From: Patescibacteria group bacterium
GTDB taxonomy: Bacteria > Patescibacteriota > Minisyncoccia > Phycocordibacterales > JACOZG01
Direction of reading: 5' to 3'
Length of the DNA: 64,000 bases
Assembly: GCA_038065495.1 (NCBI GenBank)
Contig: JBBTQW010000002.1
Coordinates: 81,321 to 145,320, forward strand
Shown here one piece after another: positions 2,151 through 64,000 of the stretch. Each line of letters opens with the position of its first letter. The first letter of the stretch is position 1. Under the pieces are notes generated by a model. It was not told the origin of the DNA. It made no database searches and worked only from the letters and a program-made list of their open reading frames with translations. Position numbers and translations under genes: made by a program.

Positions 2151-2298
2151 CTGCTTAACTCCTTTCCGAGTCAAAAAGGTTACAAAATTGCCAAAGAACG
2201 AGCCTCCAAAAGATAACCCTAGCATATCCCCAACTTATTCCCAAATTGGCCGGGGAACCGCTTGTGCTAGATTTTTCCCATAATGCTAGAATAGCCAC

Positions 2299-3660: not shown

Positions 3661-3666
3661 AAAAAC

Positions 3667-4299: not shown

Positions 4300-4304
4300 T
4301 ATTT

Positions 4305-4634
4305 TTATTTAATACTCAAGATTTCTACTTCCGTGTAAGGCTGCCGGTGTCCCCTTTTCACACGATAACGAGTTTTGTTCTTGTACTTAAAGACGAGCAA
4401 TTTGTCGTGACGATCATCAGCCACGCGCTTGGCGGTCACCTTAACGCCGGCAAGAGCTGGCGTGCCGAGCTTGGTCTCTTTACCATCGCTAGTGAGCAAA
4501 ACCTCGTCGAAAATAACCTCGCTACCCTCTGACTTAACATCAGTTTTAGCCAGTTTTTCCACCTTCAGCTTATCGCCCGGAGCGACCAAATACTGCTTGC
4601 CGCCGGTCTTGATTACCGCAAATTTCATAGTCAT
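4305..4634 (-). CDS. rplU: 50S ribosomal protein L21
   Basis: MKFAVIKTGGKQYLVAPGDKLKVEKL is the typical L21 N-terminus. The true start may be the third codon (ATG at 4628). Confidence 0.85.
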   Translation of the reverse strand: MTMKFAVIKTGGKQYLVAPGDKLKVEKLAKTDVKSEGSEVIFDEVLLTSDGKETKLGTPALAGVKVTAKRVADDRHDKLLVFKYKNKTRYRVKRGHRQPYTEVEILSIK

Positions 4635-4691
4635 AGTGGGGATAGTTTAGCAGATTTGACTTTGGCCGTCAATATAATAAGCTAAAGGTTC

Positions 4692-5765: not shown

Positions 5766-6073
5766 TCCCCGCCCGCCAACCGCTGTTGCATTGCCTCCAG
5801 CGCGCCGAGAGCTGTCTTGCCGGTGCGCTTTTCTTGTTCTAGAAGTTCTTGTTTTACCCGCTCACCACCCCGATTGTAACCACCCGTTCGGCCAGCAGAA
5901 CGCACTACCCTGTGGCACGGGATATGTGGATCGTGATTACGCGCCATAATGCGCCCCACCGCACGCCAAGCCCGTGGTGAGCCAGCTGCCTCCGCCACTT
6001 CGCGATAATTCATTACTTTGCCAGGCTTGATCGCCTTAACGACTTGATGCACTTTTCTGACAAATTCACTCAT
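5762..6073 (-). CDS. methylated-DNA-protein-cysteine methyltransferase DNA-binding domain protein (Ogt C-domain only, 103 aa)
   Basis: Active-site motif PCHRVV and winged-helix context (YREVAEAAGSPRAWRAVG). Confidence 0.75.
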   Translation of the reverse strand: MSEFVRKVHQVVKAIKPGKVMNYREVAEAAGSPRAWRAVGRIMARNHDPHIPCHRVVRSAGRTGGYNRGGERVKQELLEQEKRTGKTALGALEAMQQRLAGGD

Positions 6074-7115
6074 TTTCCAAATCTGGCTTGTCTAAAACTA
6101 ATGTCTCCATGCTGGAAGTCTCGCCCGTCACCCGTGCCACATCTTTATCAATCTTTTTCAGCTCTTTATACGCCGAATTATAGTGACTAACCGTTGTCCC
6201 CAAGCTTGTGCCAAGTTTGCCGAAATATTGCTCATAAGCCGCGATGTGCTTGCCCAAGTCTTCCACTCTGTCCCGAATCACCTTCGCTGATTCTTCTATT
6301 TGCAACGCCTTCAAGCCCTGCAGAACTGTCTGCAAGTAAGCCAAGAAAGATGTGGGCGAGACAATAATCACGTGTTTATCTTTGAATGCATACTCAATTA
6401 GATCTCTAGTATTTATTTTCACCGAACCAACTTGCGCGACTAATAAGTCATAATAAATCGCCTCGTGGGGAATAAACATGAAGGCGAAGTCCATCGTGCC
6501 CTCGCTCGGTTTGACATATTTACTCGTCTCATCAATTCTGTTCTTCAAATCAGACTTAAATAATTTCTCTAGGCGCTCCCGCTCCACCGGATCGCGTTCT
6601 TCGGCTAGTCTATTATAATTCTCGAGCGAAAATTTTGAGTCAATGGGAATAATTTTCTCTTTTACAAAAACCACCGCATCCACAATCGTGCCGTCTTTGA
6701 ACGGATATTGCATCTGGTAAGAACCAGTTGGTAAAACATTTTTCAGCAAAGTTTCGAGATAATATTCGCCAAGAATACCGCGCTGTTTGGGATTTTTCAA
6801 AATATCTTGCAAGCTCTGGAGTTGATCCGCGAAATTTTCCACGCGCTTCTGGCCTTCACCCACCTTCACCAGCTCGCTCGTGATATCGCGAATCATTTTA
6901 TTAGACTCGCTAGACTGACTCTGGAGCGAAGTGTGGAGAAACTTGCTCGACTCGGTGAGCTTGCTATCCAGCACGCGCGTGAGCTCATTGAGCTGATTCT
7001 GGAGCAAGATTAGCGCTTGATTATCCCCCGCCGGCTTCGGCTTATTCTGCGCCAAGAACCAAGCGATTCCGCCACCCACGAGCAAAGCAATAATTACATA
7101 CAAAATTGTCGCCAT
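6066..7115 (-). CDS. rmuC: DNA recombination protein RmuC
   Basis: N-terminal TM helix and coiled-coil region; C-terminal block GILGEYYLETLLKNVLP...QMQY...DAVVF...IPIDSKF aligns with the RmuC family. Confidence 0.6.
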   Translation of the reverse strand: MATILYVIIALLVGGGIAWFLAQNKPKPAGDNQALILLQNQLNELTRVLDSKLTESSKFLHTSLQSQSSESNKMIRDITSELVKVGEGQKRVENFADQLQSLQDILKNPKQRGILGEYYLETLLKNVLPTGSYQMQYPFKDGTIVDAVVFVKEKIIPIDSKFSLENYNRLAEERDPVERERLEKLFKSDLKNRIDETSKYVKPSEGTMDFAFMFIPHEAIYYDLLVAQVGSVKINTRDLIEYAFKDKHVIIVSPTSFLAYLQTVLQGLKALQIEESAKVIRDRVEDLGKHIAAYEQYFGKLGTSLGTTVSHYNSAYKELKKIDKDVARVTGETSSMETLVLDKPDLENE

Positions 7116-7226: not shown

Positions 7227-7808
7227 CTACTCGACTTTGGGAGAACTTTTTTGGAGTTTTTTCTTAACGTCTTGCCTGATCCGTTCTTCTTCCTTATTGA
7301 CAAACTCCTCCAAAGAGAATGCCACCGGAAGCTTGTAGATGGTGATACGCGTCTCCAACAAGGGCTTGCGGACGGAAACTACATATCTTAGGCTGGACAG
7401 TTGCTGTTGCGATGCTAAACACAGCAGGGCTTGTTCGACCGTCTCTCCGCCTGTCCACTCTCTGAACCAACTTGATGGTCGGAAAAGAGAAAAGTTTACG
7501 CGCTCAAGTATGCTTGGTAATAACTTGCGGAGAATAAACCCATCTTTACCAATGCAGAAAAACTGTTGTGAACCATAAGAAGAGGGAGCGTACGCCATAT
7601 ACTCAAGATCAAAGTTAATATACCCTGTCGAGCGCAGGACATCGAGGTCTAACCGTTCTACCCTGATCTTAAGGTACTTGAGATCCTTTGGATTGATCTC
7701 CCCCAGCCATTTTCGCAAAAATGGAAACTCCGCGATGTATTCTTCGTTTGCAACTTGTAAAGGACTCTTCGACATTTGAAGCTCCTTGTGGCACCGCCAC
7801 ATTTTCAA
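7227..7808 (-). CDS. hypothetical protein (about 180-193 aa, no recognisable domain)
   Basis: Long ORF between rmuC and obg with its own downstream terminator. The start may be the internal MSKSPLQ methionine. Confidence 0.45.
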   Translation of the reverse strand: MKMWRCHKELQMSKSPLQVANEEYIAEFPFLRKWLGEINPKDLKYLKIRVERLDLDVLRSTGYINFDLEYMAYAPSSYGSQQFFCIGKDGFILRKLLPSILERVNFSLFRPSSWFREWTGGETVEQALLCLASQQQLSSLRYVVSVRKPLLETRITIYKLPVAFSLEEFVNKEEERIRQDVKKKLQKSSPKVE

Positions 7809-7922
7809 GATAAAGCACCGCCTTACCTTGGGGAACTATCCACGAGTAATACCCGCGGATTCTCGCCCAAAAACACATCGTTTTCAGGTCTAAACTAAGC
7901 CTAGCATACTAACTATCTTGTG

Positions 7923-8891
7923 TCAAGCCCCCTTCTCTTTTCCTATTTTATTCAAAACTTTCTTCACTTGTTCTAGACTATCCAGATCAAAAACGGAAAT
8001 CGCCATCGCTTTGACTTTCAACTTCGCTAATTTGGCGAGTTTAGCTTTCACTTCAGTTTTCTCTAATAAATCAGTTTTATTTAAAAATACATGCTCCTGC
8101 TTTTTTATTAATTCCGGATTATATTGTTTTAATTCTTGTCTAATTATTTTATAATCCCGCGCCACGTCATCAGATTCGCCAGAAATAATGTGGAAAATCG
8201 TTTTCGTGCGTTCAATGTGTCGCAAAAACTTAATGCCCAATCCCCGACCCTCGCTCGCGCCCTCAATCAAGCCCGGCAAGTCAGCGAGAATCAAACCGTA
8301 ATAAGCGCCCAAGTGCGGCTCGAGCGTAGTGAACTGATAATTTGCAATTTTGCTCTTCGCATTTGTTAATTCATTAAGCAAACTCGATTTGCCAGCATTC
8401 GGTAAACCAACTAGGCCAATGTCAGCGATTAGTTTTAATTCTAATCTTAGTTCAAATTCCTCGCCCGGCAAACCAGGCTGGAACTGTTTCGGCGAAGTAT
8501 TGATAGAAGAACGGAAGAGAAAGTTCCCCTTCCCACCCAAGCCACCCTTCGCTACCAAGACTTTCTCACCAATCTTGACCAACTCTTGGTCGAAGCCGGT
8601 CGTAAGATTGTGGATCACCGTGCCCACCGGCATCTTGAGCAGAATATCCTTGCCCGTGTGGCCATCGCGATATTGTCTCTGCCCGTTCTCGCCGTTCTCG
8701 GCCTTCTTCTGCTTCTCGAAGCGGAACTGCGCCAATGCACCGATATCGCTAACCGCCTCGGCAAACACGCTCCCGCCCAAGCCGCCACTACCACCAGTCG
8801 GTCCTAGCGCCAGCTTATTGCGTTCAAAAGCGACCGAGCCACGCCCGCCGTGTCCGCCGGCTACTCTAATCTTGATATCGTCAACTAACAT
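7923..8891 (-). CDS. obg: GTPase Obg/CgtA (short form, 322 aa)
   Basis: Gly-rich Obg fold (GGHGGRGSVAFERNK...GGSGGLGGSV) and G domain (GLPNAGKSSLLN, DLPGLIEGASEGRGLG). Confidence 0.85.
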   Translation of the reverse strand: MLVDDIKIRVAGGHGGRGSVAFERNKLALGPTGGSGGLGGSVFAEAVSDIGALAQFRFEKQKKAENGENGQRQYRDGHTGKDILLKMPVGTVIHNLTTGFDQELVKIGEKVLVAKGGLGGKGNFLFRSSINTSPKQFQPGLPGEEFELRLELKLIADIGLVGLPNAGKSSLLNELTNAKSKIANYQFTTLEPHLGAYYGLILADLPGLIEGASEGRGLGIKFLRHIERTKTIFHIISGESDDVARDYKIIRQELKQYNPELIKKQEHVFLNKTDLLEKTEVKAKLAKLAKLKVKAMAISVFDLDSLEQVKKVLNKIGKEKGA

Positions 8892-49893: not shown

Positions 49894-50949
49894 CTATTTT
49901 GGATTCGAGAAGAGACCAGACTTTTTATCTTCTTTAAAGAATTTAGGATTCTTGAGGTTAACTAAGATAGTATTATCTTTGACATAACGCTCTTTCTTCA
50001 CAGCCGCCATCACTTGAGCTTTCGTCATCGCGCCATTTTTGTCGAGAATTTGCTTAATCACGTCGCGAACAATACCCGGCGTGTAGCCCCAATCGCCAAG
50101 CGCATATAATCCCCGCCCAACGAGCACGAATCTCGGATCTTTAATTAATTCATTGTGACTAGTCGCGGCATTAGTTTTGCGACCAAAGGTGGCCGTAATC
50201 TCTTTGGCGACTTCGGTAAAGTGCATTGGAGAACCCTTGCGACGCATGACGAGGAAAGCGTAATCTTTGATCCCTCTTACGCGCACATTTGGCGACTTGG
50301 CCAGGCCCCACTCGCCCACCGGACTCAAACCAATCTCTTTGGAGAGCTTGAGCCAGTTCTTGACCTTCTGCCGAGCCATCTCTGGCGAGACGCGTTTATC
50401 CAAACCACTCATAAAGTGCTCCACAATTTTATCTTCAGAAACTAATTCGTTAGTATCGAGAACTTGGCAGAGATTGCGTAGTGACTGATGCACGCCTTCG
50501 GCGAGGCTCGCATCCACCGTCCAACGATGATGGAAATAATCATCTTCTTTTAGTTTCGCAAAAGCGTCGCCGAGCACAAGCAAGAAGTGCACATTATTCT
50601 GGACCACCTGATCTTTAGAAATATGATCAAGAAACTCCTGCTCGTGCACCAGGCCGCCGTAATCTTCCATCACACCCTTGAGCTGGGCAAAGATTGACTG
50701 AGCAGCTGTATTGGCCTCAGACTTCTTGATCTGCGCAATCGTGGCATTCTCAATCTGCCGCACGCGCTCGCGGGTGATGCCATAGATCTGGCCCACCGCC
50801 TCCAGTGTCATCGTCTCTTTCGTCGCCAAGCCATAACGACGCTTAACTACGTCACGTGGCCGCGCCCCAAGGCTGGCCAAAAGCTCTTTTACCACCTCAA
50901 CTGGCTTGAAGGCCATCACCTCTTTTGTTTCTTTGCTGTTGTTATTCAT
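49894..50949 (-). CDS. sigma-70 region-4-like HTH domain protein fused to an unknown ~280-aa C-terminal domain
   Basis: TLEAVGQIYGITRERVRQIENATIAQIKK is a canonical sigma70 region 4.2 HTH; regions 2 and 3 are not detectable. Confidence 0.55.
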   Translation of the reverse strand: MNNNSKETKEVMAFKPVEVVKELLASLGARPRDVVKRRYGLATKETMTLEAVGQIYGITRERVRQIENATIAQIKKSEANTAAQSIFAQLKGVMEDYGGLVHEQEFLDHISKDQVVQNNVHFLLVLGDAFAKLKEDDYFHHRWTVDASLAEGVHQSLRNLCQVLDTNELVSEDKIVEHFMSGLDKRVSPEMARQKVKNWLKLSKEIGLSPVGEWGLAKSPNVRVRGIKDYAFLVMRRKGSPMHFTEVAKEITATFGRKTNAATSHNELIKDPRFVLVGRGLYALGDWGYTPGIVRDVIKQILDKNGAMTKAQVMAAVKKERYVKDNTILVNLKNPKFFKEDKKSGLFSNPK

Positions 50950-53900
50950 GTTTTTATATTATCATAGATTACAAAATTAAGCAAACGTCCTGGGATATAA
51001 ACTACCTTTTTTACCGTTTTATTGTCAAGCCACTTCTGCACTTTAGGGCTCTGTAGAGCCATATTCTTGGCTATTTCTTCTGTTGCTTCTTGCCCGCCAC
51101 TCAACACGATTTTGTCACGAATTATACCATTGACCTGAATCATAATATTTTGCTCACGTGTTGTAGTTTTTTCTCCAGATTCACTCAGTTCTGGCCACTT
51201 CTCTTGATGAATCGAGGTGTTATGTCCCAACTTTTGCCACAATTCTTCTGCGATGTGCGGCGCAAAGGGTGCGAGAAGCTTAAGAAAAACTTCATAATCT
51301 GTTTTACTCACGCCTTCTTTCTCAAAAGTGTTCAACAAAATCATCAAGCCAGAAATAGCCGTGTTAAATTTGAGACTTTCAATATCTGATGTTATTTTCT
51401 GCACCGAATCAGCTAAATTTTCTGCAGTTTTTTCTGACAGATTATCACTCAATTTCCAGACTCTCTCCAAGAATCTTCTTGGCCCAATTATACTTTCTGT
51501 ATTCCAAGCCACCGCTTGCTCAAATGGACCCATGAACATTTCGTACAATCTCAGCGTATCAGCGCCATAAAGTCCCACAATTTTATCGGGATTAATGATG
51601 GTCTCCGGCTTTGACTTACTCATCTTCACTCCACCTTCAGCGAGAATTAAGCCGTGACTCGTACGCTTCTGATACGGTTCAGAATTTGGCACTAATTTGA
51701 GATCAAATAAAAATTTATGCCAGAATCTAGAATAGAGCAAGTGCAGAGTCGTGTGCTCCATGCCACCGTTGTACCAATCCACGCCGCCAAGACTTGTTCC
51801 AGTTTTGCCTAGCCAATATTGCAATTTTTCTTCACTCGCAAATTCTTGAGCATTTTCTGGATCGCAGTAACGCAGATAATACCAGCTTGAACCCGCCCAG
51901 TTCGGCATCGTGTCAGTTTCTCGCCGCGCTTCGCCGCCACATTTCGGACATTTCACATTCACCCACTCACTCACGCTCGCGAGTGGCGATTCGCCGTCAT
52001 CACGGGGTTGATATTCTTTGACTTCCGGCAAAATCACTGGCAAATCACTTTCTGGCACAGGTTGCCAATCACATTTGCTGCAAAAAATCATCGGAATCGG
52101 CTCACCCCAATAGCGCTGTCGCGAAAAAATCCAATCGCGCAGTTTGTAAGTCGTTTTCGCCGTGCCAAATTTCGCGATTATTTTTTCCCGCGCCTCAACA
52201 GAATCTAAGCCGGAGAATTCGCTGGAATTTATCATTACACCTTCGCTAGCCCAAGCATGTTCGGGTTTAAAGAACCGGTCGAGCCACAGCTCGTATTCTG
52301 AACATTTGATATTTTTGTCTTTCGCCAGTTCGTCCCAAGTTAGCCAAACGACTTCATGAATCTGTTTCTCCTCTTCCGACAACTCTTGCTGTTCTTCGTT
52401 CTCTAACTCAAAAACCAGAGCGTGAAAAACCGCTTTTCGGTTCTCGTTCTTGTGATTAGCAAAGAAATGCGACTCGACTGGACCACCTAAAGTTTTCACA
52501 TACTTCACATTTTTATAGCCGGTTTCTTCGGTAATTTCTCTTTTTGCTGCTTCCACCATATCTTCGTCACCCTCGATCCCACCAGTGATAAATGTCGTCC
52601 AGGGAAATTTTTTCCACTTCAAACACAAAACTTTCTGATTTTTGGGATTAATAATTATCGCCTGAATGGCATTTCTCGCTACCGTTTTCACGCCTTCGCG
52701 CGGCGGATCGTGGGTGTCGATCATTTTGGGCGTCACCACTTCTCTAATCGGTAAATTATGTTTCTGCGCAAAAGCAAAATCCCGCTCATCATGGGCCGGC
52801 ACGCCCATCAGTGCGCCGGTGCCCACATCAGACATTACATATTCTGCTTCCCACACTGGAATCTCCTCCCCCGTGGCCGGATTAGTCACATACTGGCCAG
52901 TAAATTTATCGGTTTTGCCAGCAATGGCCAGATAAGTCGCGCCGAAAATCGTTTCTGGCCGAGTGGTGAAGACTTTGATCACCCCACCCGCACCCTCCCC
53001 CAAGGGGAGGGCTAAGTTTATTTGCTCCAAAACTTTTTTAATGTTATTTAAAACCTCTTCGTTGCTGAAACGAATAAGTTTATAGCCGAGTTGTGCCAAA
53101 TATTTTGTTCTTTCTTCGTCAGATTCCTTTTGATAATCATGAACATCCCCGTCAACTTCTACTACCAACATTTTTTCTAGACAAACAAAATCAACAATAA
53201 ATTTTCCAATAATATGTTGGCGGCGAAAGTGGCAACCTAGTTTATTGTCTCTTAATTCTTGCCACAATTTCTCTTCAGCTTCAGTAGGATTCTGACGCAT
53301 ACCCACCGCTTTTTCTTGTAAAGCGCGGTAGGCGACTGGATCAGCAGTTTGATAGCCAAATTCGCCCCACCCATTCCCTCCCCCAAGGGGAGGGTTCTTT
53401 CTCTCTTCCCCCTCTCCTTTGGGGAGGGGGTCGGGGGTGGGGCTGAATGGAAACTCAATCTCCGCTCCCTCACTTCTCCCAATCCAATTTCTCTGCTGGA
53501 TTTTGATTTTTTCTAAATAGTCTACCGTGTCCAGATCTTTATCCAATCTGTCCGCATACTTCGTAATCGCCAGCATCCATTGCTCTTTCTCTCGTTGTTC
53601 CACTTCCGTACCACAACGCTCACACTTACCATCAACCACTTCTTCATTCGCCAAACCAATTTTATCTTTCGGACACCAGTTAATTAGCGTTTTCTTCTTA
53701 TACGCCAAGCCGTGCTGATAGAACTGCAGAAAGAGCCATTGCGTCCATTTGTAATATTCCGGATCAGTGGTGTTGATCTCGCGTGACCAATCAAATGAGA
53801 AGCCAAGCGCTTTGAGCTGTTTACGAAAGTTATCCGTATTTTCTTGCGTCACCAGTGCCGGCGCTTTGCCCGTTTTGATTGCGTAATTCTCTGTTGGTAG

Positions 53901-54161
53901 ACCGAAAGCGTCCCAGCCCATCGGATAGAGCACGTTCTGACCCATCATCCTCCGCTTTCTCGCCAAGATATCCAGCGCCGTATAACTCCGGATGTGACCG
54001 ACATGCAAGCCATCACCAGACGGAAACGGAAACTCCACCAAACAATAAAACTTATTTTTTTCTCCCGCTTCGCTTTTTTCTTGCGCAGAATAAATACCAG
54101 ACTTCTCCCATTCCGTCTGCCATTTCTGCTCTATTTGATTGTGATCGTAAGCTTCAGCCAC
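50946..54161 (-). CDS. leuS: leucyl-tRNA synthetase carrying an in-frame DUF559 endonuclease-fold insertion (1071 aa)
   Basis: HIGH-type motif (HVGHIRSY), CP1 editing motif TTRPETIFGATY, KMSKS and the anticodon-binding domain are all present. About 160 extra residues lie between NWIGRSEGAEIEF and VFTTRPET. Confidence 0.9.
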   Translation of the reverse strand: MAEAYDHNQIEQKWQTEWEKSGIYSAQEKSEAGEKNKFYCLVEFPFPSGDGLHVGHIRSYTALDILARKRRMMGQNVLYPMGWDAFGLPTENYAIKTGKAPALVTQENTDNFRKQLKALGFSFDWSREINTTDPEYYKWTQWLFLQFYQHGLAYKKKTLINWCPKDKIGLANEEVVDGKCERCGTEVEQREKEQWMLAITKYADRLDKDLDTVDYLEKIKIQQRNWIGRSEGAEIEFPFSPTPDPLPKGEGEERKNPPLGGGNGWGEFGYQTADPVAYRALQEKAVGMRQNPTEAEEKLWQELRDNKLGCHFRRQHIIGKFIVDFVCLEKMLVVEVDGDVHDYQKESDEERTKYLAQLGYKLIRFSNEEVLNNIKKVLEQINLALPLGEGAGGVIKVFTTRPETIFGATYLAIAGKTDKFTGQYVTNPATGEEIPVWEAEYVMSDVGTGALMGVPAHDERDFAFAQKHNLPIREVVTPKMIDTHDPPREGVKTVARNAIQAIIINPKNQKVLCLKWKKFPWTTFITGGIEGDEDMVEAAKREITEETGYKNVKYVKTLGGPVESHFFANHKNENRKAVFHALVFELENEEQQELSEEEKQIHEVVWLTWDELAKDKNIKCSEYELWLDRFFKPEHAWASEGVMINSSEFSGLDSVEAREKIIAKFGTAKTTYKLRDWIFSRQRYWGEPIPMIFCSKCDWQPVPESDLPVILPEVKEYQPRDDGESPLASVSEWVNVKCPKCGGEARRETDTMPNWAGSSWYYLRYCDPENAQEFASEEKLQYWLGKTGTSLGGVDWYNGGMEHTTLHLLYSRFWHKFLFDLKLVPNSEPYQKRTSHGLILAEGGVKMSKSKPETIINPDKIVGLYGADTLRLYEMFMGPFEQAVAWNTESIIGPRRFLERVWKLSDNLSEKTAENLADSVQKITSDIESLKFNTAISGLMILLNTFEKEGVSKTDYEVFLKLLAPFAPHIAEELWQKLGHNTSIHQEKWPELSESGEKTTTREQNIMIQVNGIIRDKIVLSGGQEATEEIAKNMALQSPKVQKWLDNKTVKKVVYIPGRLLNFVIYDNIKT
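52993..53011. repeat. 19-bp near-palindrome ccctcccccaaggggaggg (copy 1), flanking the DUF559 insertion
   Basis: Identical 19-mer at 53376..53394; both copies preceded by ccccaccc. On the coding strand it encodes PLP(K/L)GEG. Confidence 0.8.
53376..53394. repeat. 19-bp near-palindrome ccctcccccaaggggaggg (copy 2)
   Basis: Direct copy of 52993..53011. Because the unit is near-palindromic, the pair also acts as terminal inverted repeats. Confidence 0.8.
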
Positions 54162-55582: not shown

Positions 55583-55846
55583 ATGAAATCTGGGTCCTCA
55601 CTGCAATCGTTATTCATGGTAAAGTGTCTGGTTGACGAACTAATTCTCGACCGACCAATTACTGAATTGGGATTATACCAAAGAGCAGAAAACATTCTGA
55701 GATCAGTCCATATCGACACCATCAGAAAGCTCACCCAAAGCTCTGAACGTGTGTTTCTCTCCTACCGTGGGGCAGGAACAACCTCACTGAAAAGTATCAA
55801 GCGTGAGCTAAACAAACTGGGTCTTTCGTTGCAACAAGAAACCTAA
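55583..55846 (+). CDS. standalone RNA polymerase alpha-CTD-like HhH domain protein (87 aa)
   Basis: ITELGLYQRAENILRSVHIDTIRKLTQSSERVFLSYRGAGTTSLKSIKRELNKLGLSL matches the alpha-CTD consensus (EL.L..RA.N.L....I.T...L....E......G..SL..IK..L...GLSL). Confidence 0.6.
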   Translation: MKSGSSLQSLFMVKCLVDELILDRPITELGLYQRAENILRSVHIDTIRKLTQSSERVFLSYRGAGTTSLKSIKRELNKLGLSLQQET

Positions 55847-57080: not shown

Positions 57081-57794
57081 TTAACAGAAAGATCTGCGCC
57101 GGCGAGGAAACAGAGGGAGTGAACCCAATCCGGCGATTGCCAGCGTCGCTGGTTCCGGCACCGGGCGATAGTCATAAGTGACTTTCGCGGTCAGGTTGAG
57201 AACCGGGTTCTCCACCTCTAGTTGCCACGAATCGGGCACATACGGCCCGAAGTTCGCCGTCTGGAAGATCACGTCCGGCGTGAACATGAAGTCCGCTGTG
57301 CCTGCGCCCAGATACGCCGCAAGCGGCTGAGCAGGATGTGAGACGGTCAATGTGGCATACGAGACGGTGCCAAAGTTGTGACCGTCTGGGCCAGAACTCT
57401 GGAAAACATCGTTATTACCACCATCGCCGTCATCCGGAGTAAGTGGGACCGAGGCTGTGTTCACAATCTTGGTATCGCCACTCGCGAGGCCGGCCGGGCC
57501 AGTCACTGACCACGAGCGAATCAGCTGACCTTGGACAAACAACTGCTGACCATGGTCAAACGGATCGTCGTTATCGGCCTGCAGATCCACCGAGCCATCA
57601 TGGCAAAACTCCACCAGCACACCGACCAGCTCGCGCGTGCCACCCATGTCGTCGAACTTGGGGACACTCACCACCACGCTCGGCTGGAGCGCACTCTCGA
57701 ACGAGTTCGATCCACTCACCATGTACGAATCCGCGCGCGCCGCGCTGGCCGTGAGCAACACGGCGACCATCCCCACCAAACTGGGAACTTTCAT
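57081..57794 (-). CDS. secreted protein with a C-terminal PEP-CTERM sorting signal
   Basis: Signal peptide MKVPSLVGMVAVLLTASAARA; C-terminus PVPEPATLAIAGLGSLPLFPRRRR (PEP motif, TM helix, Arg cluster). AAGGAG RBS before the internal ATG. GC-rich. Confidence 0.6.
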   Translation of the reverse strand: MKVPSLVGMVAVLLTASAARADSYMVSGSNSFESALQPSVVVSVPKFDDMGGTRELVGVLVEFCHDGSVDLQADNDDPFDHGQQLFVQGQLIRSWSVTGPAGLASGDTKIVNTASVPLTPDDGDGGNNDVFQSSGPDGHNFGTVSYATLTVSHPAQPLAAYLGAGTADFMFTPDVIFQTANFGPYVPDSWQLEVENPVLNLTAKVTYDYRPVPEPATLAIAGLGSLPLFPRRRRSFC

Positions 57795-57910
57795 ACTCAA
57801 ACTCCTTCTTGTCGAAGAACAATTTAGCCGCAAACCCTGCAGCCTTGGGAAGTTAGACGAAAATCTAACCAACTTATACCCTAGCAGATTTGCAAAAACT
57901 TGTCAAATAT

Positions 57911-58190: not shown

Positions 58191-58261
58191 GGGCCTATAG
58201 TATAGCGGTAGAACGGTTCCATGGCATGGAACAGGTCCGGGTTCGACTCCCGGTAGGTCCA
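58191..58261 (+). tRNA. tRNA-Ala (anticodon GGC)
   Basis: GGGCCTA/TAGGTCC acceptor with the G3:U70 Ala identity pair, anticodon arm GTTCC-ATGGCAT-GGAAC, T-arm CCGGG-TTCGACT-CCCGG, discriminator A. CCA is not encoded. Confidence 0.8.
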
Positions 58262-58273
58262 CAGAGTTTCCCC

Positions 58274-60013
58274 CTACTTCACCTCTTTCTCGATATCTTC
58301 GATTTCTTTTTTGATATATTTCTCAGCGGTCCGAAGATTCTTGCGGACACGAGTGAGGATGCGCGCTTCTTCGCGAGTCAAGTCGCGCTTCGTTTTAGCT
58401 TTCTCTAGCAAGCTTAACTGCTTCTCCAGATCTTCGCGCAGGAGATCAAAGGCTTGGCCGATTGACTCTTCTGCCTCATGCACTTCGGCTCGCACCTTGC
58501 GCCGCAGGCGATGTAAAGCGCGCTGGCTGTGCTCGAGCAAGAGCGCGAGTAAGACGAATAGCGCCACAAAAGGAATCGCGACCGAGAGAGCGGAAACAGC
58601 TTTATTGCCCAAGCGCCACCAGGCCGGCGGGCGCACGTTCAGCTCAATCGCCGTGCTGGGCAAACTACTCGCGCCGTCATCGCGTAGCACTCGGGCGGTA
58701 ATCGTATAATTGCCGGCCGGCAGTTTCTCTGGCGAAACAAAAGTAAAGCTGCCGAGGTTATCGCTCTTGATGCTGGCAATTTCGGCTGGATTAGCCCCTT
58801 CTTGCACGCTCACAAGCAAGCCGGTATCGGGATAAGTTTGACCTTTGGCCACCAAATTCTGCCCGGCGAGTAGATCGGTTGGGTAATCCGTCCAAGTTGG
58901 CGAGAGTAGCGGTAGAACCGTGACAGAAATCGAAGAGAGTAATGCATTACCAGCGCGATCGAAAGCGCGCGCGGTAATAGTGTGTGTGCCCGGTGGCAAG
59001 GCTGGCGTGCGATAAACTTCACCACGACCGCCACGCCAAACAGGCAGAGTCTCACTACCCGAACGTAATTCGTAATAATCTAAGCCAGAAGTACTATCGC
59101 TCGCGCTTAAGAGTAATTTAACTTTTGGATCCGTGTCGTCGTCCCGGGCGCTCTCGCGAATAAAGAAATTAGTCGGCTTAGTCGTGTCTATTTGCAGGCG
59201 ATAATGACTCGTCTCACTCCACTCGCCGTTACCCAATTTAGCTTGAACGTGGAAATACCACCTGCCGTCACCCAGATCATCCAAAATTTTCTCGCTCACG
59301 GCTGGCTCATAGAGCACGCTCGCCTCGCCACGCGCTGTTTTATTGACCGCTAGGCGCACCGCACTCGCGCCACTTGGCAAATCCCAGCTCAACTTGGCCG
59401 TGCTGGCACGATACCATTTGTCTTGATCTGGATGCGTGCTGGAAGTAATATTTAAACTATTCTGATCATCTTCAGTTTCAGAAATATCCGGAATTATCGG
59501 CTTGGCGATAGTTGGCTCTGTCGCCGCACCGCCAAGTTGCAAGCTGGCACTACCGGCGCTAGTCAAGATATTACTGCCTTGGCCGTCATTGGCGAGCACG
59601 GCTGGTGTGACAAAACTTAATTTGGCCGAGCCCGCACGCTTGGCTCGGAAGTTGATACTCAAAACTCGGCCAGAATTACCGGTAAAACCGGGATTAAGCG
59701 CCACGCCTTCGAAATTTATTGTTCCCGCAGAATTAGAAAAGCTCGGCTCTTGCACCCACAGGCCGACGACCGAGCCGCCCTTGGAGAGCGAAGTGACTTG
59801 CAAGAGATCAGCGGGGAAAGTGACAACGCCAGAAACAGCGTTCATGGCTTGGTCAGGTGTGGAAACGATTATTGTAACAGCAAAATTCTGACCAGCTGAG
59901 AAATTTCCAGTATTTGGACTAAGACTAAGTGACGCCGCGTGCGCAAAACTTGGCGCTAAAAAAAGAACTGAAGCAAAAAAGATTAAAAATATTTTTGAAA
60001 TAGAAAAATGCAT
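58274..60013 (-). CDS. cell-surface protein: signal peptide, cohesin-like N-terminal domain, Ig-like repeats, C-terminal TM anchor and a coiled-coil cytoplasmic tail
   Basis: SLSLSPNTGNFSAGQNFAVTIIVSTPDQAMNAVSGVVTFPADLLQVTSLS...LWVQEPSFSNSAGTINFEGV resembles the cohesin domains of CPR-type surface proteins; TM segment AIPFVALFVLLALLL near the C-terminus. Confidence 0.5.
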   Translation of the reverse strand: MHFSISKIFLIFFASVLFLAPSFAHAASLSLSPNTGNFSAGQNFAVTIIVSTPDQAMNAVSGVVTFPADLLQVTSLSKGGSVVGLWVQEPSFSNSAGTINFEGVALNPGFTGNSGRVLSINFRAKRAGSAKLSFVTPAVLANDGQGSNILTSAGSASLQLGGAATEPTIAKPIIPDISETEDDQNSLNITSSTHPDQDKWYRASTAKLSWDLPSGASAVRLAVNKTARGEASVLYEPAVSEKILDDLGDGRWYFHVQAKLGNGEWSETSHYRLQIDTTKPTNFFIRESARDDDTDPKVKLLLSASDSTSGLDYYELRSGSETLPVWRGGRGEVYRTPALPPGTHTITARAFDRAGNALLSSISVTVLPLLSPTWTDYPTDLLAGQNLVAKGQTYPDTGLLVSVQEGANPAEIASIKSDNLGSFTFVSPEKLPAGNYTITARVLRDDGASSLPSTAIELNVRPPAWWRLGNKAVSALSVAIPFVALFVLLALLLEHSQRALHRLRRKVRAEVHEAEESIGQAFDLLREDLEKQLSLLEKAKTKRDLTREEARILTRVRKNLRTAEKYIKKEIEDIEKEVK

Positions 60014-60015
60014 GT

Positions 60016-60912
60016 CTATTTATTATACTTCAATCGTGCAAACAACCACAAGCTCGCAATAATCCCCGCTACGAAAATTGCGAGCACGCCCAACTTTTTA
60101 CGCAATGAGAAAGTTGAGACTGGTTCTAATTCTAACTCTGGCGCTGTTTGCGGCTTCTCCACCGAGCTAGGAAAATTATTCTGAGAATTATTTTCTGGAT
60201 TTTTGTTCAGATTCATAGTCACCGGGATCTTTACCTCAGGCAAAACATTTTCTGGTTCTGGCTGGTTAATTACCTGCATCTGGGTTGAGAACAATCTCTG
60301 CCTAATTAAATTAAGCAAATTTAACAATAAATTTCTCAGATTTTCAGAAATTGTCGTAATAGCATTCGTGACGCCGTGGCTGATATTGCCAATAAAGCCC
60401 GAGCCACCACTGGAGCCATTCCCCGATCCTGTTCCGGTTTCTGTCTCCGTCCTGGCCGAAGCTGGTCGCCAGTCAGTCTGGACGGAACAATTGTCACAAT
60501 CAAAAGTCACTCGTCCCACACTATTACCAGATGTCCCAGCCGTACCCGCAAAAACACCATTATCACTGATACTGATGCCGCCTAAGTCGAGCCAGCCGAG
60601 GCCCGAGACCCACGCCGCGCCGCTCAAGCTCCCCTCGCTGGTATTGGCCACGCTCTGGCTAGAATTGCTGGGCTGGAAGTTGATCCAACCATATTTGCTA
60701 CTCCAGCCATAACCGGATAAGCCGGAGTCGGTGACTGTGACACCCACATACTCGTCGCTAGTGTTCGTTGGCGCGAGATTGATCCAACCGAGATTCTCAC
60801 CCCAAGCATAAGCGTGGCTGGCGCTGACCGTCCCCACAGTTTCGGAAGCTAAAGCAGGACTCACCAACGCTAGCGCGAGCAAAAAGATCAAACAGACTTT
60901 TTTAAGGCGCAT
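60016..60912 (-). CDS. secreted, membrane-anchored protein with three GW(I/L)(N/D)(L/F) repeats
   Basis: Signal peptide; repeats WGENLGWINL, YGWSSKYGWINF, AAWVSGLGWLDL; Gly/Ser/Thr-rich linker; C-terminal TM helix. Confidence 0.45.
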   Translation of the reverse strand: MRLKKVCLIFLLALALVSPALASETVGTVSASHAYAWGENLGWINLAPTNTSDEYVGVTVTDSGLSGYGWSSKYGWINFQPSNSSQSVANTSEGSLSGAAWVSGLGWLDLGGISISDNGVFAGTAGTSGNSVGRVTFDCDNCSVQTDWRPASARTETETGTGSGNGSSGGSGFIGNISHGVTNAITTISENLRNLLLNLLNLIRQRLFSTQMQVINQPEPENVLPEVKIPVTMNLNKNPENNSQNNFPSSVEKPQTAPELELEPVSTFSLRKKLGVLAIFVAGIIASLWLFARLKYNK

Positions 60913-61333
60913 GTTGTTCTACTTGTTCTGTTTTATTTTCGGCCTCTGCTTGCACCTGCGCGAGGGGCGCTGTTGTCACAATTTTATCCACCGCCGGCCG
61001 ATACAGCACAGCTAGATGGGCTTGCGGGAAAACAATCACCTTATCGCCGTTCTGAGCTGAACGAAAGAAGTCTTGACCGTTCAATTTTTCGCGATCAGAC
61101 ACCGTGGCCACCACCACACCGGTTTCGTCTGGGATAATCATCAGTCGCGCCAGTGATTTAATTATTTTTGTCGTTTCATTTTTCGCTCGGATTTCCGGAT
61201 CAGTCTGGAGCGTGCGATAGCGTTGATAGAGATAAGCCACCGCTACTAAACACAACACAAGTAACGCAACCAGAATCCGCGTCAAAACCGTTTGTCTGGC
61301 ATTAGTTGTTTTACGATTAGTACTAACAGTCAT
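60902..61333 (-). CDS. hypothetical membrane-anchored protein (143 aa)
   Basis: Single N-terminal TM helix (ILVALLVLCLVAVAYL); no recognised domain. Confidence 0.4.
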   Translation of the reverse strand: MTVSTNRKTTNARQTVLTRILVALLVLCLVAVAYLYQRYRTLQTDPEIRAKNETTKIIKSLARLMIIPDETGVVVATVSDREKLNGQDFFRSAQNGDKVIVFPQAHLAVLYRPAVDKIVTTAPLAQVQAEAENKTEQVEQHAP

Positions 61334-61345
61334 GATCTAAAAATA

Positions 61346-63850
61346 TTAAATAGTTTCTGGGACAACAATTTCTTCTGCTTGTTCAGAATTTTCTGGATTT
61401 TCTGACTTTAGTTCTGGTGCTGGTTCTGGTTTAGTAATAACTTCCGGTTCTGGTTCTGGTTCTGGTTCAGATTTAACTTCCGGCGTCACACTGGCAGGAG
61501 TGACTGACTGATTTAGTTTATCAAAATCTTCGGCCTTCAAACATTTTTCCGTGCCATCTGCTCGTTGCAAACACAGCTCTCTAGTGTGAACTTTCTCAAA
61601 ATAACCAACAACTGCCGTTACTCGCGCGCTGACAAAGTCAGTCACGGGCTTTAAACCTGTTTTAACTTTTTCCAGAATATATTCGCGCGCGTTTCGAGGA
61701 CTTTCCGTACTCACCTCATCCAAATTTAGTGTGAGTCCGCGGCTCTCCAGTGTCTCACCCCAACGCGCTTCTTGCTCTTGCACGGCGCGTACCACCAGCG
61801 CCAAGATCGCCCGGTCATCAATACCGCTAATCTGGCCCTCACCATCATGTGTCGCCAAGTGGTCATCAACTTCGGCAGTATCTTCCGCAATAAAACCGTA
61901 ACGCGTCCGACCGTCGCCCTCGTTGTAGACGAAAGAGACCGGCTCCAGACCGGCTAGAGTTTCTAAACCAGCCACTTCTAGCTCGGCGATATCATGCTTT
62001 GTCGCGCGGGTGGAAGACAAGCAAGCATCAGAGGCGCTGTTATACACAACTTGCTTACTAGAGCTCAAGCACAGCGAGCCAGCGCCAGTAGAGCCAGTGA
62101 GACCGTCGAAGCCGACTGTGCCAGTAACCGAGAGCGTGCGCCACGGCGAGGTGGTGGCCACGCCCAAGTTGCTGCCCACTTGGATATTGCCAGTGAGCGT
62201 AATCGCCGGATTGATCAATTTATCCAACTGACAAGCTGAGCAAGAAACCGTGCCAGTGCCATCAATGCTGTAAGTAGTAGTGGAAGCAGTGGTAATGCCA
62301 TTGAGCGAGAGGCCATTACCAGTGATGGTGATGGGAGCAATAGTACTATCGGGAATTAATTGTGCGCCAGAAACGTATGTGGTGCCACCACCAGTGTGAT
62401 AAAGCGGATAAGTACCACGCATCACACCACCTAAGACCTTCAGATCATCGCCGCCACTACCATTGCTAATACCGTGAGGATAAAGAGCTACTTCCAGCGT
62501 AACCCTAGCCGGAGTACCACCACAACCAGGCATATCAAGGGCGCCTTCGGCATTGGCGTCAAAAACTCTAGCTTTGACATAAAGGTTGCCGCAAGCAACC
62601 TCAATACCACTACCAGTGCCACCGCCTTCGCCACCCATAATAGTATCGGCATATAGATTAACATTGCCATCCGTCACAACGGCGTCATACTCTATGGAAG
62701 AAATATCGCGAGTCACGTGAGCAGTAAATTGCGCACCAGAACCAACCACAATCGCACTGGCATTAGGCGAACCGGCAGAGATTGAGCGAATGCGCTCGGC
62801 TGAGACTGTGACGGAGCTGGCGGCATTGGTGATAGAAAAAGGGGCGTGATCATTACTTCCAGCATTGCCCGCATAAATAAACTGACCGTGGCCACCAATA
62901 GTAGAAGTTGCGGCCCCGTTAGTGCCATTTGCACCATCATCAAAGATCGCCGCGCCAGAACCGGTAAAATAGACTACAGCGCCAGGCTCAAAGTAATAAT
63001 TAACGCCAGTCTTGAGCAGATTACTAGTGTCATAAAAACCCGGGCCAACATAAATAGTGCTGGATGCAGTAGCGTCTTGTTTTGCCTTCTGCAACATCGC
63101 ACCGCGCGCGGCGTTGGTGTCGGAAGAAATATAAGTTTTAGTACTAGTCGGTGTTTGTAGAACAATCGAGCCGGCCAGCGTAGTGGTGGCGGTAAAAGTG
63201 TTGACGCCAGAATAAGAATTGGTGGAAGTGGTACTAACATAGTCTAACCCGGCCGTGGCTACGCTCACGAGGCCAGTGGTGGACTTGAGCAAACCAGAGA
63301 AAGAATTGATGGAAACATTGCCGGTAAGGTTGAGCCCGCCGGAGCCGGCTTGCAAGTTGAGTGCGGTGGCGCCAGTGGTATTGCCAAGCGTGATTGTCTT
63401 GGCGCTGGAGCCGGTGCCAAAGTTTAGAGCACTAGCCGCAGCCGAATCAACCGTCAAAGCACCGCTACCAGTAATCGTCCCGCCGTTGACGCTAATATTA
63501 TTGGCAAAAGTGGTGGAGCCATCGTCGCCAAAGGTGACAAAAGCCGTGCCATTATCTTTGATAATAAAGTCGCCCTGGCCTGCGAGATTAAAAATCAAAT
63601 TAGAATCCGTGGCAGTGTCGGCGAGGGTGAAGGTGAGATCACGATTATCAGTGGTAACAATCGCATTGCCACTGGTGGCGTTATAAACTGCCTGCAAGGT
63701 CGAGCTGGCCACCGTACAGTTGGCAGTGGTTGGCGCACATTCGGGATCCAGCGTCTCGCCCGGGTCATAGGGTTGACCATCCCAAGCGGCAAACACCACT
63801 GAAGTGAGCAATAAACTAGTAACGATGACAGCGATGCCTATTTTCTTCAT
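61346..63850 (-). CDS. secreted beta-helical fibre/adhesin-like protein with an internal peptidase-S74 intramolecular-chaperone auto-processing domain and an acidic EP-repeat tail
   Basis: Signal peptide; long G/T/S/N-rich beta-solenoid-like region; ...TKHDIAELEVAGLETLAGLEPVSFVYNEGDGRTRYGFIAEDTAEVDDHL...ISGIDDRAILALVVRAVQEQ matches the S74/endosialidase-chaperone consensus (LKxNIxxL..LxPVxYxxK...GFIAQEVxxVxPE...VxYxxLxxLLIEAIKEL). Confidence 0.55.
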   Translation of the reverse strand: MKKIGIAVIVTSLLLTSVVFAAWDGQPYDPGETLDPECAPTTANCTVASSTLQAVYNATSGNAIVTTDNRDLTFTLADTATDSNLIFNLAGQGDFIIKDNGTAFVTFGDDGSTTFANNISVNGGTITGSGALTVDSAAASALNFGTGSSAKTITLGNTTGATALNLQAGSGGLNLTGNVSINSFSGLLKSTTGLVSVATAGLDYVSTTSTNSYSGVNTFTATTTLAGSIVLQTPTSTKTYISSDTNAARGAMLQKAKQDATASSTIYVGPGFYDTSNLLKTGVNYYFEPGAVVYFTGSGAAIFDDGANGTNGAATSTIGGHGQFIYAGNAGSNDHAPFSITNAASSVTVSAERIRSISAGSPNASAIVVGSGAQFTAHVTRDISSIEYDAVVTDGNVNLYADTIMGGEGGGTGSGIEVACGNLYVKARVFDANAEGALDMPGCGGTPARVTLEVALYPHGISNGSGGDDLKVLGGVMRGTYPLYHTGGGTTYVSGAQLIPDSTIAPITITGNGLSLNGITTASTTTYSIDGTGTVSCSACQLDKLINPAITLTGNIQVGSNLGVATTSPWRTLSVTGTVGFDGLTGSTGAGSLCLSSSKQVVYNSASDACLSSTRATKHDIAELEVAGLETLAGLEPVSFVYNEGDGRTRYGFIAEDTAEVDDHLATHDGEGQISGIDDRAILALVVRAVQEQEARWGETLESRGLTLNLDEVSTESPRNAREYILEKVKTGLKPVTDFVSARVTAVVGYFEKVHTRELCLQRADGTEKCLKAEDFDKLNQSVTPASVTPEVKSEPEPEPEPEVITKPEPAPELKSENPENSEQAEEIVVPETI

Positions 63851-63855
63851 TCACA

Positions 63856-64000
63856 CTAATTATAACCCACTTTTTTCACATCCCAAAGCTCTTTGCCCAC
63901 ATATTTTTCCACTTTTTCTAAGTCAGTTAATAACTTGGTTTCGGCTGCTTTTTCTTCGTGAGCCAAGTCACGAGTCAGCTTAGCTTGATGTAAGATATTT
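63856..64000 (-). CDS. 3' end of a minus-strand gene running off the window (C-terminal 48 aa: ...AKLTRDLAHEEKAAETKLLTDLEKVEKYVGKELWDVKKVGYN)
   Basis: Frame is open to the window edge and ends at TAG (complement of 63856-63858). Not in the ORF track because less than 60 aa lies inside the window. Confidence 0.3.
   Translation of the reverse strand, partial: NILHQAKLTRDLAHEEKAAETKLLTDLEKVEKYVGKELWDVKKVGYN

Follow-up and report, generated by a model that had tools for sequence, protein, structure and literature searches.

Surface genes next to tRNA-Ala in a Patescibacterium mostly reflect a conserved operon, extended by one recent cassette

In an ultra-small groundwater bacterium of the Patescibacteria (CPR), a tRNA-Ala gene is followed by four consecutive genes for envelope proteins on the minus strand, here called A to D. 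Are these genes a locus for surface attachment, or the remains of a degraded prophage with its tail-fibre region? Both readings had been offered by a first-pass annotation of the sequence. To our knowledge, host attachment in CPR/Patescibacteria is largely unknown beyond type IV pili. What looked like a tRNA-adjacent island is for the most part a conserved operon, to which a single cassette was added recently.

We analyzed a stretch of 64,000 nucleotides (the window). The annotated succession of a tRNA-Ala gene and four minus-strand genes was recovered by tRNA searches and open reading frames (Table 1). Homologues were found elsewhere for all four reading frames, so that A, B, C and D are all real genes. 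D and C are separated by a gap of 12 nt and B and A by one of 2 nt; the reading frames of C and B share 11 nt. The tRNA gene is convergent with gene A, with its 3' end 11 nt from the stop codon of A, and forms the downstream boundary of the operon.

Table 1. Features at the distal end of the operon (window coordinates; aa, residues of the respective product).
Feature	Position	Strand	Basis or remark
tRNA-Ala, anticodon GGC	58191..58262	+	ARAGORN; Rfam tRNA, 57 bits
Gene A, 579 aa	58274..60013	-	ORF; long cohesin anchor
A, transmembrane helix (aa ~469-497) and cytoplasmic helical hairpin/coiled coil (aa 498-579)	58277..58609	-	Hydropathy, AF2
A, domains 2-4, three Ig/FN3-like β-sandwiches forming the stalk (aa 189-461)	58631..59449	-	
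A, domain 1, cohesin fold (aa 27-160)	59534..59935	-	
Gene B, 298 aa	60016..60912	-	ORF; W-rich β-barrel protein
B, conserved domain without a Pfam name (aa 22-155)	60448..60849	-	
Gene C, 143 aa	60902..61333	-	ORF; small anchored protein
Gene D, 834 aa	61346..63850	-	ORF; S74 fibre protein
D, S74 chaperone/autocleavage domain (aa ~613-700), putative Ser613-Lys618 dyad	61751..62014	-	
D, central region, replaceable (aa ~275-560)	62171..63028	-	
674-aa gene, 3' end	63856..64000	-	Paralogue of A; extends beyond the window edge
Promoter-like site TTGGGA-16-TATAAT, 10/12	63859..63886	-	Consensus match alone; just upstream of D

The first-pass annotation had confined the cluster to positions 58191–63850. 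Its gene content stands; the boundary at 63850 does not, as the same operon continues upstream past the window. We read the genes beyond the window from a matching Patescibacteria MAG (GCA_964356885.1), in which six further co-directional genes with short gaps between them precede D. With at least ten genes, the operon extends beyond the window, and A to D occupy its 3' end. From 5' to 3' on the minus strand it encodes a giant β-helix protein, proteins of 236, 313, 318, 310 and 674 residues, and finally D, C, B and A. Everything preceding D lies outside the window save the 3' end of the 674-aa gene: residues 628–674 of its product are 100% identical to window positions 63999–63859 (tblastn). 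The 674-aa protein shares 34% identity with A (E = 8e-51). The promoter-like site 5' of D could serve as an internal promoter of the operon. In two relatives (loci L004 and L009) the tRNA gene is found beside the h73/ychF side, and the genes between it and A vary. Since 0, 1 or 3 unrelated genes separate A from the tRNA gene in relatives, the adjacency looks incidental.

Gene A encodes a type-I membrane protein comprising a signal peptide, a cohesin domain, three Ig-like domains, a transmembrane helix and a cytoplasmic coiled coil, in this order. The first domain shows the nine-stranded jelly roll of the cohesin fold. Its score against Pfam Cohesin (PF00963) is 18.6 bits, below the gathering cut-off of 24.1, and the same model matches 33 of 58 members of the A family at E ≤ 0.01 (best E = 2.7e-7). 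The AF2 model places helices at residues 464–542 and 547–578. The annotation of A as a cohesin-like anchored protein with a coiled-coil tail is consistent with this domain order. The cytoplasmic tail is kept across the family (consensus ...KEIEDIEKEVK). Sequence searches of the PDB with A, B and D gave no useful match; a profile of the A family matched only an Ig-like adhesin and ATP-synthase-b-like helices. More than 530 homologues of A were found, those listed being mostly ~560–600 residues long and, beyond the closest relatives, 37–56% identical. Relatives of A are encoded in at least 514 GTDB species-representative genomes. Some of the corresponding locus titles name Saccharibacteria, Gammaproteobacteria, Methylomirabilis or Deferribacteres. 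We treated these odd titles as unverified MAG labels and not as evidence for the family outside Patescibacteria.

A closes a module of three genes, which encode a dockerin protein, a cohesin anchor of ~300 residues and a cohesin anchor of ~580 residues. The first two are referred to as g318 (the 318-aa dockerin protein) and g310 (the 310-aa short cohesin anchor). A synteny comparison in relatives, as proposed by the first-pass annotation, was run for A: of the 63 informative loci, 62 have g310 as the immediate upstream neighbor of A, and 58 keep the order g318-g310-A. In one genome g310 and A are fused into a single reading frame of 866 aa. The protein g318 consists of Big_6 domains and a dockerin, its Ig-like domains being the only domains besides the latter. 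Dockerin_1 (PF00404) matches 32 of 34 members of the g318 family (best E = 2.1e-9); the copy of the window genome scores 13.8 bits, under the cut-off of 22.9. This copy carries a duplicated F-hand Ca-binding segment (DxNxDGxVxxxD, twice), GDLNGDCKVNLVDFSI ... NLSGEGAVDLRDFSI, and the family consensus is a duplicated KGDLNxDxRVNLVDFSI...DLNxDGKVDLVDFSI. In the g310 family, Pfam Cohesin matches 7 of 40 members. A is part of a family that spans the lineage and keeps its synteny, and so is no variable island gene. Membership in ordinary conserved envelope-biogenesis families with synteny across the lineage had been named in advance as speaking against an attachment locus. For A the lineage-wide synteny is present; the family itself is uncharacterised and does not belong to a known biogenesis family.

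D, C and B have a different history. In the sub-clade of the window they are placed, together with the 674-aa paralogue of A, between g310 and A, the last two genes of the module. The arrangement 674-D-C-B-A was found only in the window and in loci L004 and L091. In loci L092 and L009, where A is 56% identical, a 674-like gene is followed directly by A. D, C and B are a recent add-on cassette that was acquired only in this sub-clade. Within it, the order D-C-B-A is kept in relatives with A as low as 64% identical.

The largest cassette protein, D, is secreted. It has a Sec signal peptide, is rich in Thr, Gly, Ala and Ser, and carries a C-terminal S74 intramolecular-chaperone domain. The phage-type chaperone domain noted in the first-pass annotation was confirmed by a match to Peptidase_S74 (PF13884) with 35.2 bits (cut-off 22, E = 1.5e-8, residues 615–662). 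Residues 612–618 read SSTRATK, so that S613 and K618 lie five positions apart at the start of the domain, as in a Ser-Lys dyad. This spacing equals that of the dyads of endoNF (S911/K916) and MyRF (S587/K592) (PMC8326128). As judged by its sequence, the S74 domain of D is genuine and of the self-cleaving-chaperone type. By analogy with the family, D would form a trimer and cleave itself. In the relative at L091 the central part of D is absent or replaced, whereas the N-terminus (76%) and the C-terminus (70%) are kept. The alignment of the D family is shallow (8 sequences). Residues 253–293 match the start of a viral 578-aa reading frame (IMG/VR), the N-terminus of which in turn matches rhamnogalacturonan lyase 5olq. 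Composition, together with this weak, transitive link to a β-helix cap, suggests that the central region may be a right-handed β-helix. D resembles phage tailspikes and fibres (endosialidase endoNF, the T5 L-shaped tail fibre, GA-1 gp12), and eukaryotic MyRF, in its S74/ICA domain with correctly spaced Ser and Lys. As in phage tailspikes and fibres, its ends are conserved and its middle is exchangeable. It differs from them by its Sec signal peptide, its place in a cellular operon with no virion genes nearby, and ~130 extra residues past the chaperone domain, which form an acidic, Pro-rich tail.

Protein B consists of a signal peptide, a W-rich β-barrel domain, a disordered linker and a C-terminal transmembrane anchor. 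Its domain contains the invariant residues W37, W43, W70, W76, W101, C139 and C142. B had been annotated as a GW-repeat protein. The recurrent Gly-Trp dipeptides are indeed present, and they are all that B shares with the GW modules of Listeria and Staphylococcus (InlB, Ami). We rejected a Listeria-type module: no GW domain model matched, and in the predicted structure, which was compared with PDB structures, the three G-x-x-W...GW(I/L) motifs are hairpins of one small β-barrel of ~130 residues and not SH3-like modules of ~80 residues. The only Pfam match at E ≤ 0.1 is a weak one to DUF5559 (E = 0.036); the GW module family of Listeria is thus unmatched as well. The barrel belongs to a large family without a Pfam name, and in other CPR proteins it is fused to dockerin, PG_binding_1, SLH or SH3_3 domains.

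Protein C was correctly annotated as a small anchored protein. It has a single transmembrane segment at the N-terminus (residues ~16–36) and a conserved outside domain of ~70 residues, and it belongs to a very large family of such small proteins, again without a Pfam name (5195 representatives of 50%-identity clusters at E ≤ 1e-3). LytR_C (PF13399) weakly matches 5 of 50 family members (best E = 6e-6) and does not match C itself. In 8 other lineages, C-like genes immediately precede the dockerin gene.

The first three genes of the operon, all outside the window, resemble WxL systems in their layout. They encode the giant β-helix protein with a WxL-like C-terminal domain, a small WxL-like protein (g236) that shares this domain, and an anchored WxLIP/DUF916-like protein (g313) with two Ig domains and a C-terminal anchor. 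In a mixed set of 33 homologues of g313 and g236, WxLIP_PGBD (PF06030) matches 5 sequences (best E = 2.1e-8); the copy of the window genome is unmatched. Pfam WxL matched none of the g236-type and giant-type homologues in the 33-sequence set, nor was the dual W-x-L motif apparent. A WxL cluster consists of one WxLIP, a small WxL and a large WxL protein (PMC10599100). The arrangement of g313 with a small and a giant protein is like that of the WxL/WxLIP (DUF916-DUF3324) Csc clusters of Firmicutes (PMC10599100, PMC1534035). Unlike those clusters, the present operon yielded no Pfam WxL match and shows no evident dual motif, and it is joined to a cohesin-dockerin module, which has not been described for WxL clusters.

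All four products of A to D carry a signal peptide or a transmembrane anchor, as seen from sequence reading and hydropathy, and cohesin, Ig-like, S74 fibre and extracellular barrel domains are typical of surface display. These features agree with the annotation as a surface-appendage or attachment locus. We propose, with a probability of roughly 60%, that A to D are the distal part of a cell-surface operon encoding a membrane-anchored cohesin-dockerin display scaffold with lineage-specific adhesive cargo. The stalk of three Ig-like domains would keep the cohesin module of A clear of the membrane, and the cytoplasmic coiled coil could link the complex to the cell interior or drive oligomerisation. 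In the proposed mechanism, the cohesin modules of A and g310 would capture dockerin-bearing proteins in a Ca2+-dependent manner. Candidate partners are the neighboring g318 and other dockerin proteins encoded elsewhere; D and B are devoid of a dockerin. The outcome would be a non-covalent display scaffold anchored in the membrane, to which the D-C-B cassette would add surface cargo. D is probably a trimeric fibre, whose S74 domain would fold the trimer and then cut itself off at Ser613, and its exchangeable middle probably determines binding specificity. The barrel of B, displayed on its own transmembrane anchor, is probably ligand- or glycan-binding, and C would be a small anchored accessory protein. 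The complex probably helps the bacterium either to attach to a substrate or host cell or to organise its envelope.

The most serious alternative casts the whole module, A among its genes, as a housekeeping machine of the envelope, perhaps a tether for an S-layer or wall polymer or a trans-envelope scaffold for structure or division, with D, C and B as passengers. Such a role would account for the extreme conservation, uniform length and conserved cytoplasmic tail of the module at least as well as host adhesion would. Synteny is nearly universal and mean column identity reaches 55% in A and 48% in g318. A lacks the fast divergence that is normal for variable adhesins, and in other genomes the module is flanked by ordinary housekeeping genes (ribosomal proteins, FtsH, glycosyltransferases). 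However, no connection of the module to a known biogenesis pathway has emerged, and many genomes place it beside WxL-like, giant β-helix or Laminin_G genes, whose products are typical adhesin-type proteins. We consider a pure housekeeping role unlikely, though deserving real weight. It is compatible with the cohesin-dockerin mechanism and differs from the display scaffold in purpose alone.

A cellulosome-like complex, in which the cohesin anchors hold glycan-degrading enzymes and D acts as a tailspike-like depolymerase for polysaccharide or the host wall, is distinctly improbable. The lyase-related β-helix cap in D and the PG_binding_1 domains in some members of the B family point in this direction. 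The former link, however, is transitive and spans 41 residues, no gene of the operon encodes a catalytic CAZyme or peptidase domain, and the conserved dockerin protein bears Ig-like domains alone. Within the operon there is no dockerin-bearing glycoside hydrolase. The similarity to the anchoring scaffoldins of Firmicutes cellulosomes (the cohesins of C. thermocellum OlpA/OlpC, PDB 3ul4 and 4dh2; ScaC, 4uyp) lies in a surface-exposed cohesin that docks dockerin partners, and here a dockerin protein is encoded alongside. In contrast to the scaffoldins, the anchor is a transmembrane helix with a conserved cytoplasmic coiled coil instead of SLH repeats or a sortase signal, each protein has a single cohesin, and the partner has no enzyme. 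The bacterium itself, a member of the CPR, shows no sign of cellulolysis, and the sequence similarity is below or near the Pfam thresholds.

The second reading of the first-pass annotation, a degraded prophage, here taken to include an island of phage origin that entered at tRNA-Ala and left the tail-fibre gene D as its remnant, is already contradicted and very improbable. It could draw on the position of the cluster at the 3' side of a tRNA gene, on the S74 domain, of a kind first described in phage tailspikes (PMC8326128), on the 50% identity of the S74 stretch of D to a protein in a phage-like locus with tail-protein PHROG matches (L005), and on the swapping of the middle of D between relatives, as in phage receptor-binding proteins. 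Against this, no PHROG matches A to D significantly (lowest matches noted, E = 0.0054 and 0.094), and INPHARED yields a match only over the S74 stretch (28% identity). Among the 2.9 million viral contigs of IMG/VR there are no relatives of the A and B families, and D is matched only by a 41-aa motif. The proposed search for integrase or other phage genes past the window end found no integrase, capsid, terminase or tail Pfam family in the six upstream genes, for which no Pfam family of any kind is on record, or in the downstream genes. The 3' end of the tRNA has no second copy within 15 kb (22.5-kb locus L001), so that no att repeat was seen, and GC3 of A to D is typical of the genome and similar to that of housekeeping genes. 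The four genes are embedded in a conserved cellular operon; A, the gene nearest to the tRNA, is the most conserved cellular gene of the set, and the order D-C-B-A outlasts the divergence of A to 64% identity.

Beyond the display scaffold proposed for this locus, it is possible, if tentative, that the operon of dockerin protein, short and long cohesin anchor is an undescribed core envelope complex across Patescibacteria. Its coiled coil would couple the cell interior to modular cargo (WxL-like giants, S74 fibres, W-rich barrels), providing a platform for the hold of episymbionts on their hosts. As a candidate core surface complex found in the same order in hundreds of species, the module is biochemically testable, and it extends cohesin-dockerin biology well outside cellulosomes. 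Cohesins and dockerins beyond plant-cell-wall degradation are known from Archaeoglobus fulgidus (2xdh) and Clostridium perfringens NanJ/NagJ (2vo8, 2w1n). In those cases the modules occur in isolation, within enzymes or soluble proteins, whereas those of the present module belong to a fixed operon of three genes that includes membrane anchors and is conserved in hundreds of species. We found no paper on cohesin or dockerin operons in CPR. SEML1_0315, an essential dockerin protein of Southlakia epibionticum, was considered as a counterpart and rejected: it is monocistronic, 927 aa long and without cohesin neighbors. The same operon is found in Ca. Microsyncoccus archaeolyticus (MCSN_0750), where the published paper does not discuss it; this Patescibacterium has been studied in methanogen-containing enrichment cultures and offers an experimental handle on the operon.

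The tRNA-Ala gene and four minus-strand genes, here called A to D (Table), were recovered by ARAGORN, Rfam and ORF calls where the first-pass annotation had placed them. The packing of the four genes is operon-like, with 12 nt between D and C, an 11-nt overlap of C and B, and 2 nt between B and A. A and tRNA-Ala are convergent, and the stop codon of A is 11 nt away from the tRNA 3' end. Since each of the four has homologues in public data, they are real genes. The cluster does not start at 63850, as had been assumed. The exact D sequence was found on a contig of the MAG GCA_964356885.1 as well as in a Hainich groundwater assembly, and the MAG contig contains six further co-directional genes upstream. 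Among these, g318 carries a dockerin motif of the textbook duplicated form.

Genes and protein segments of the locus and other features of the window
Feature	Position	Strand	Description	Basis
tRNA-Ala(GGC)	58191-58262	+		ARAGORN and Rfam
Gene A	58274-60013	-	579 aa	ORF
Gene B	60016-60912	-	298 aa	ORF
Gene C	60902-61333	-	143 aa	ORF
Gene D	61346-63850	-	834 aa	ORF
674 gene	last 47 codons at 63859-63999 in window	-	A paralogue, 34% identity, E 8e-51
g310	outside window	co-directional with A-D	310 aa, cohesin-like, TM helix
g318	outside window	co-directional with A-D	318 aa, Big_6 domains, duplicated dockerin motif
g313	outside window	co-directional with A-D	313 aa, two Ig-like domains, C-terminal TM helix
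g236	outside window	co-directional with A-D	236 aa, homologous to giant C-terminal domain, 32% identity
Giant	outside window	co-directional with A-D	1985 aa, T/G/S-rich
A, signal peptide	before the beta-sandwich			AF2 model
A, beta-sandwich	aa 27-160			AF2 model
A, disordered linker	between beta-sandwich and Ig-like domains			AF2 model
A, three Ig-like domains	aa 189-461			AF2 model
A, helices	second helix ending aa 578		TM helix running into long helix, then second helix	AF2 model
Leucyl-tRNA synthetase	50946-54161	-	1071 aa
Insert 1 of the synthetase	aa 281-385		DUF559 (Vsr/restriction-endonuclease-like), E 6.6e-35
Insert 2 of the synthetase	aa 497-615		NUDIX, E 5e-15
Choice-of-anchor E protein	57081-57872	-	PEP-CTERM-like C-terminus
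351-aa protein	49894-50949	-	sigma-70 region 4, HARE-HTH
87-aa protein	55583-55846	+	stand-alone RNA polymerase alpha C-terminal domain

A relative of A is encoded in at least 514 genomes of a scan with one genome per GTDB species. The record titles cover many groups of Patescibacteria: Portnoy-, Wolfe-, Falkow-, Colwell-, Magasanik-, Jorgensen-, Uhr-, Wildermuth-, Komeili-, Brenner-, Taylor- and Staskawicz-bacteria, Paceibacterota and Microgenomatus. Synteny was analyzed by tblastn over 80 retrieved A loci, 63 of which had enough upstream DNA to be informative. A homologue of g310, the short cohesin anchor, lies directly 5' of A in 62 of the 63. In this comparison, suggested by the first-pass annotation, the complete order g318-g310-A is kept in 58 of 63 loci. 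D-C-B lies between g310 and A in none of the 80. A g313 homologue is located farther upstream in 21 loci and a C-like gene directly ahead of g318 in eight. Conservation is highest in the g318 family (48-63% identity), with Dockerin_1 and Big_6 matches in 32 of 34 members; a Cohesin match was obtained for 7 of 40 g310 relatives. Ca. Microsyncoccus archaeolyticus also has the operon (MCSN_0750). In one MAG (L016, 6871-9471) g310 and A are joined in a single 866-aa ORF (P0137). The fusion may be genuine or may stem from a sequencing error; a genuine one would speak for a functional connection of g310 with A. In the alignment many g318 homologues, e.g. in L006 and L007, begin with an additional Cys-rich module (consensus CGN..GE.CDG...C) that g318 of the window genome lacks, and one family member matches DUF4215. 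The dockerin protein that is reported to be essential in Southlakia was checked as well and is a different protein.

More than 530 homologues of A are known. Among the matches listed, most are about 560-600 aa long and aligned over nearly the full length, with identities of 37-56%, closest relatives aside. The mean column identity of the alignment is 55%, cytoplasmic tail included, and the family is remarkably uniform. The AF2 model of A has a pLDDT of 86.6.

The upstream genes g313, g236 and giant reproduce the '1 WxLIP + small WxL + large WxL' layout of Firmicutes WxL clusters (PMC10599100). PF06030 (WxL-interacting protein PGBD, formerly DUF916) gave five matches in a mixed set of g313 and g236 homologues (best E 2.1e-8), and the giant and the small 236-aa protein have a C-terminal domain in common. 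Pfam WxL gave no match in the g313/g236 homologue set scanned, so the likeness is a resemblance, not membership.

The locus is shown to be a single operon that codes for a dockerin protein, for two or three cohesin proteins anchored in the membrane, and for several proteins with adhesin-like domains that are secreted or anchored. Binding of cohesins to dockerins would create a non-covalent scaffold for display at the level of the membrane or wall. The three-Ig stalk of A would push its cohesin outward, and the conserved cytoplasmic coiled coil may oligomerise or connect to an internal partner. B would display a ligand-binding barrel. D is predicted to trimerise and to cleave itself at Ser613, yielding a fibre whose specificity would be set by its middle part. 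The system could serve to attach the cell to a host or substrate, or to organise the envelope. A housekeeping envelope role is a live alternative, because the module is strongly conserved. The component systems are of known kinds, namely cohesin-dockerin assemblies, WxL clusters and S74 fibres. What appears new is a fixed, phylum-wide operon of a dockerin and two TM-anchored cohesin proteins, one with a conserved cytoplasmic coiled coil, as well as its combination with WxL-like genes; a literature search found no paper describing a dockerin/cohesin operon of CPR.

The order 674-D-C-B-A was found only in the window genome, in L004 (A 89% identical) and in L091 (A 64%). L092 and L009 (A 56% identical) have the order giant-236-313-318-310-674-like, followed directly by A. 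Judged from this gene order, the A/674 duplication is older, and D-C-B was inserted, or retained, in one sub-clade alone.

Residues 22-155 of B form a domain without a Pfam name, with invariant tryptophans and two invariant cysteines. About 200 other proteins of Patescibacteria have it in fusion with dockerin, PG_binding_1, SLH, SH3_3, fn3 or Big_6, and it is therefore a putative extracellular, wall-proximal 'cargo' domain. B itself is anchored by its own C-terminal TM helix. C is an N-terminally anchored protein. Its family is very large, with 5195 cluster representatives at E <= 1e-3, and a few members weakly match LytR_C. The B domain and C appear to be two new, large unnamed families.

For D, eight relatives are detectable among 5.8 billion proteins. 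It has a significant Pfam match to Peptidase_S74, a chaperone/autocleavage domain, and Ser613 and Lys618 (SSTRATK, aa 612-618) show the spacing of the endoNF and MyRF catalytic dyads. In the L091 homologue (3897-6098), which is broken into ORFs of 429 and 250 aa, conservation covers 120 residues at the N-terminus (76% identity) and 270 at the C-terminus (70%), and the central third (aa ~275-560) is replaced. Receptor-binding proteins have this kind of modularity, with an exchangeable middle and kept ends. The sole hint of a beta-helix is that 41 residues match the beginning of a viral ORF, the N-terminus of which matches a rhamnogalacturonan lyase. The metagenomic contig L005 (1-17898), with tail-protein and tail-fibre PHROG matches, may come from a phage that infects a related host. 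It encodes a 1253-aa protein with an S74 region 50% identical to aa 562-696 of D, so this domain may have been exchanged with phages.

The proposal of a degraded prophage tail-fibre region failed in all checks, and the locus is cellular, with a possibly phage-exchanged S74 domain in D. A-D had no significant match in PHROGs (weak ones at E 0.0054 and 0.094), the INPHARED match was confined to the S74 stretch of D, at 28% identity, and IMG/VR contained no relative of A or B. The neighbouring genes showed no phage family either: the six upstream genes are without any Pfam family on record, the downstream genes without a phage family. No second copy of the tRNA-Ala 3' end is present in the 22.5-kb locus L001. 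The GC3 of A-D is typical (0.44-0.54, vs 0.45-0.57 for housekeeping genes of the window). The adjacency to tRNA-Ala appears incidental, since relatives have one (L004) or three (L009) genes between A and the tRNA, where the window has none (58263-58273). This interval next to the tRNA resembles an insertion hot spot of small size; in L004 it is the stretch 7695-8426, with a gene for DUF3850 and NUDIX domains, and in L009 the stretch 1868-4289.

Elsewhere in the window, two domains are inserted within the leucyl-tRNA synthetase. The choice-of-anchor E protein is 76% conserved in L004, and its gene has a GC3 of 0.68 vs about 0.5 in its neighbours. A sorting signal of the exosortase type would not be expected in a Patescibacterium, so this gene may be a horizontal acquisition. 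The 351-aa and 87-aa proteins are unusual small proteins of regulator type.
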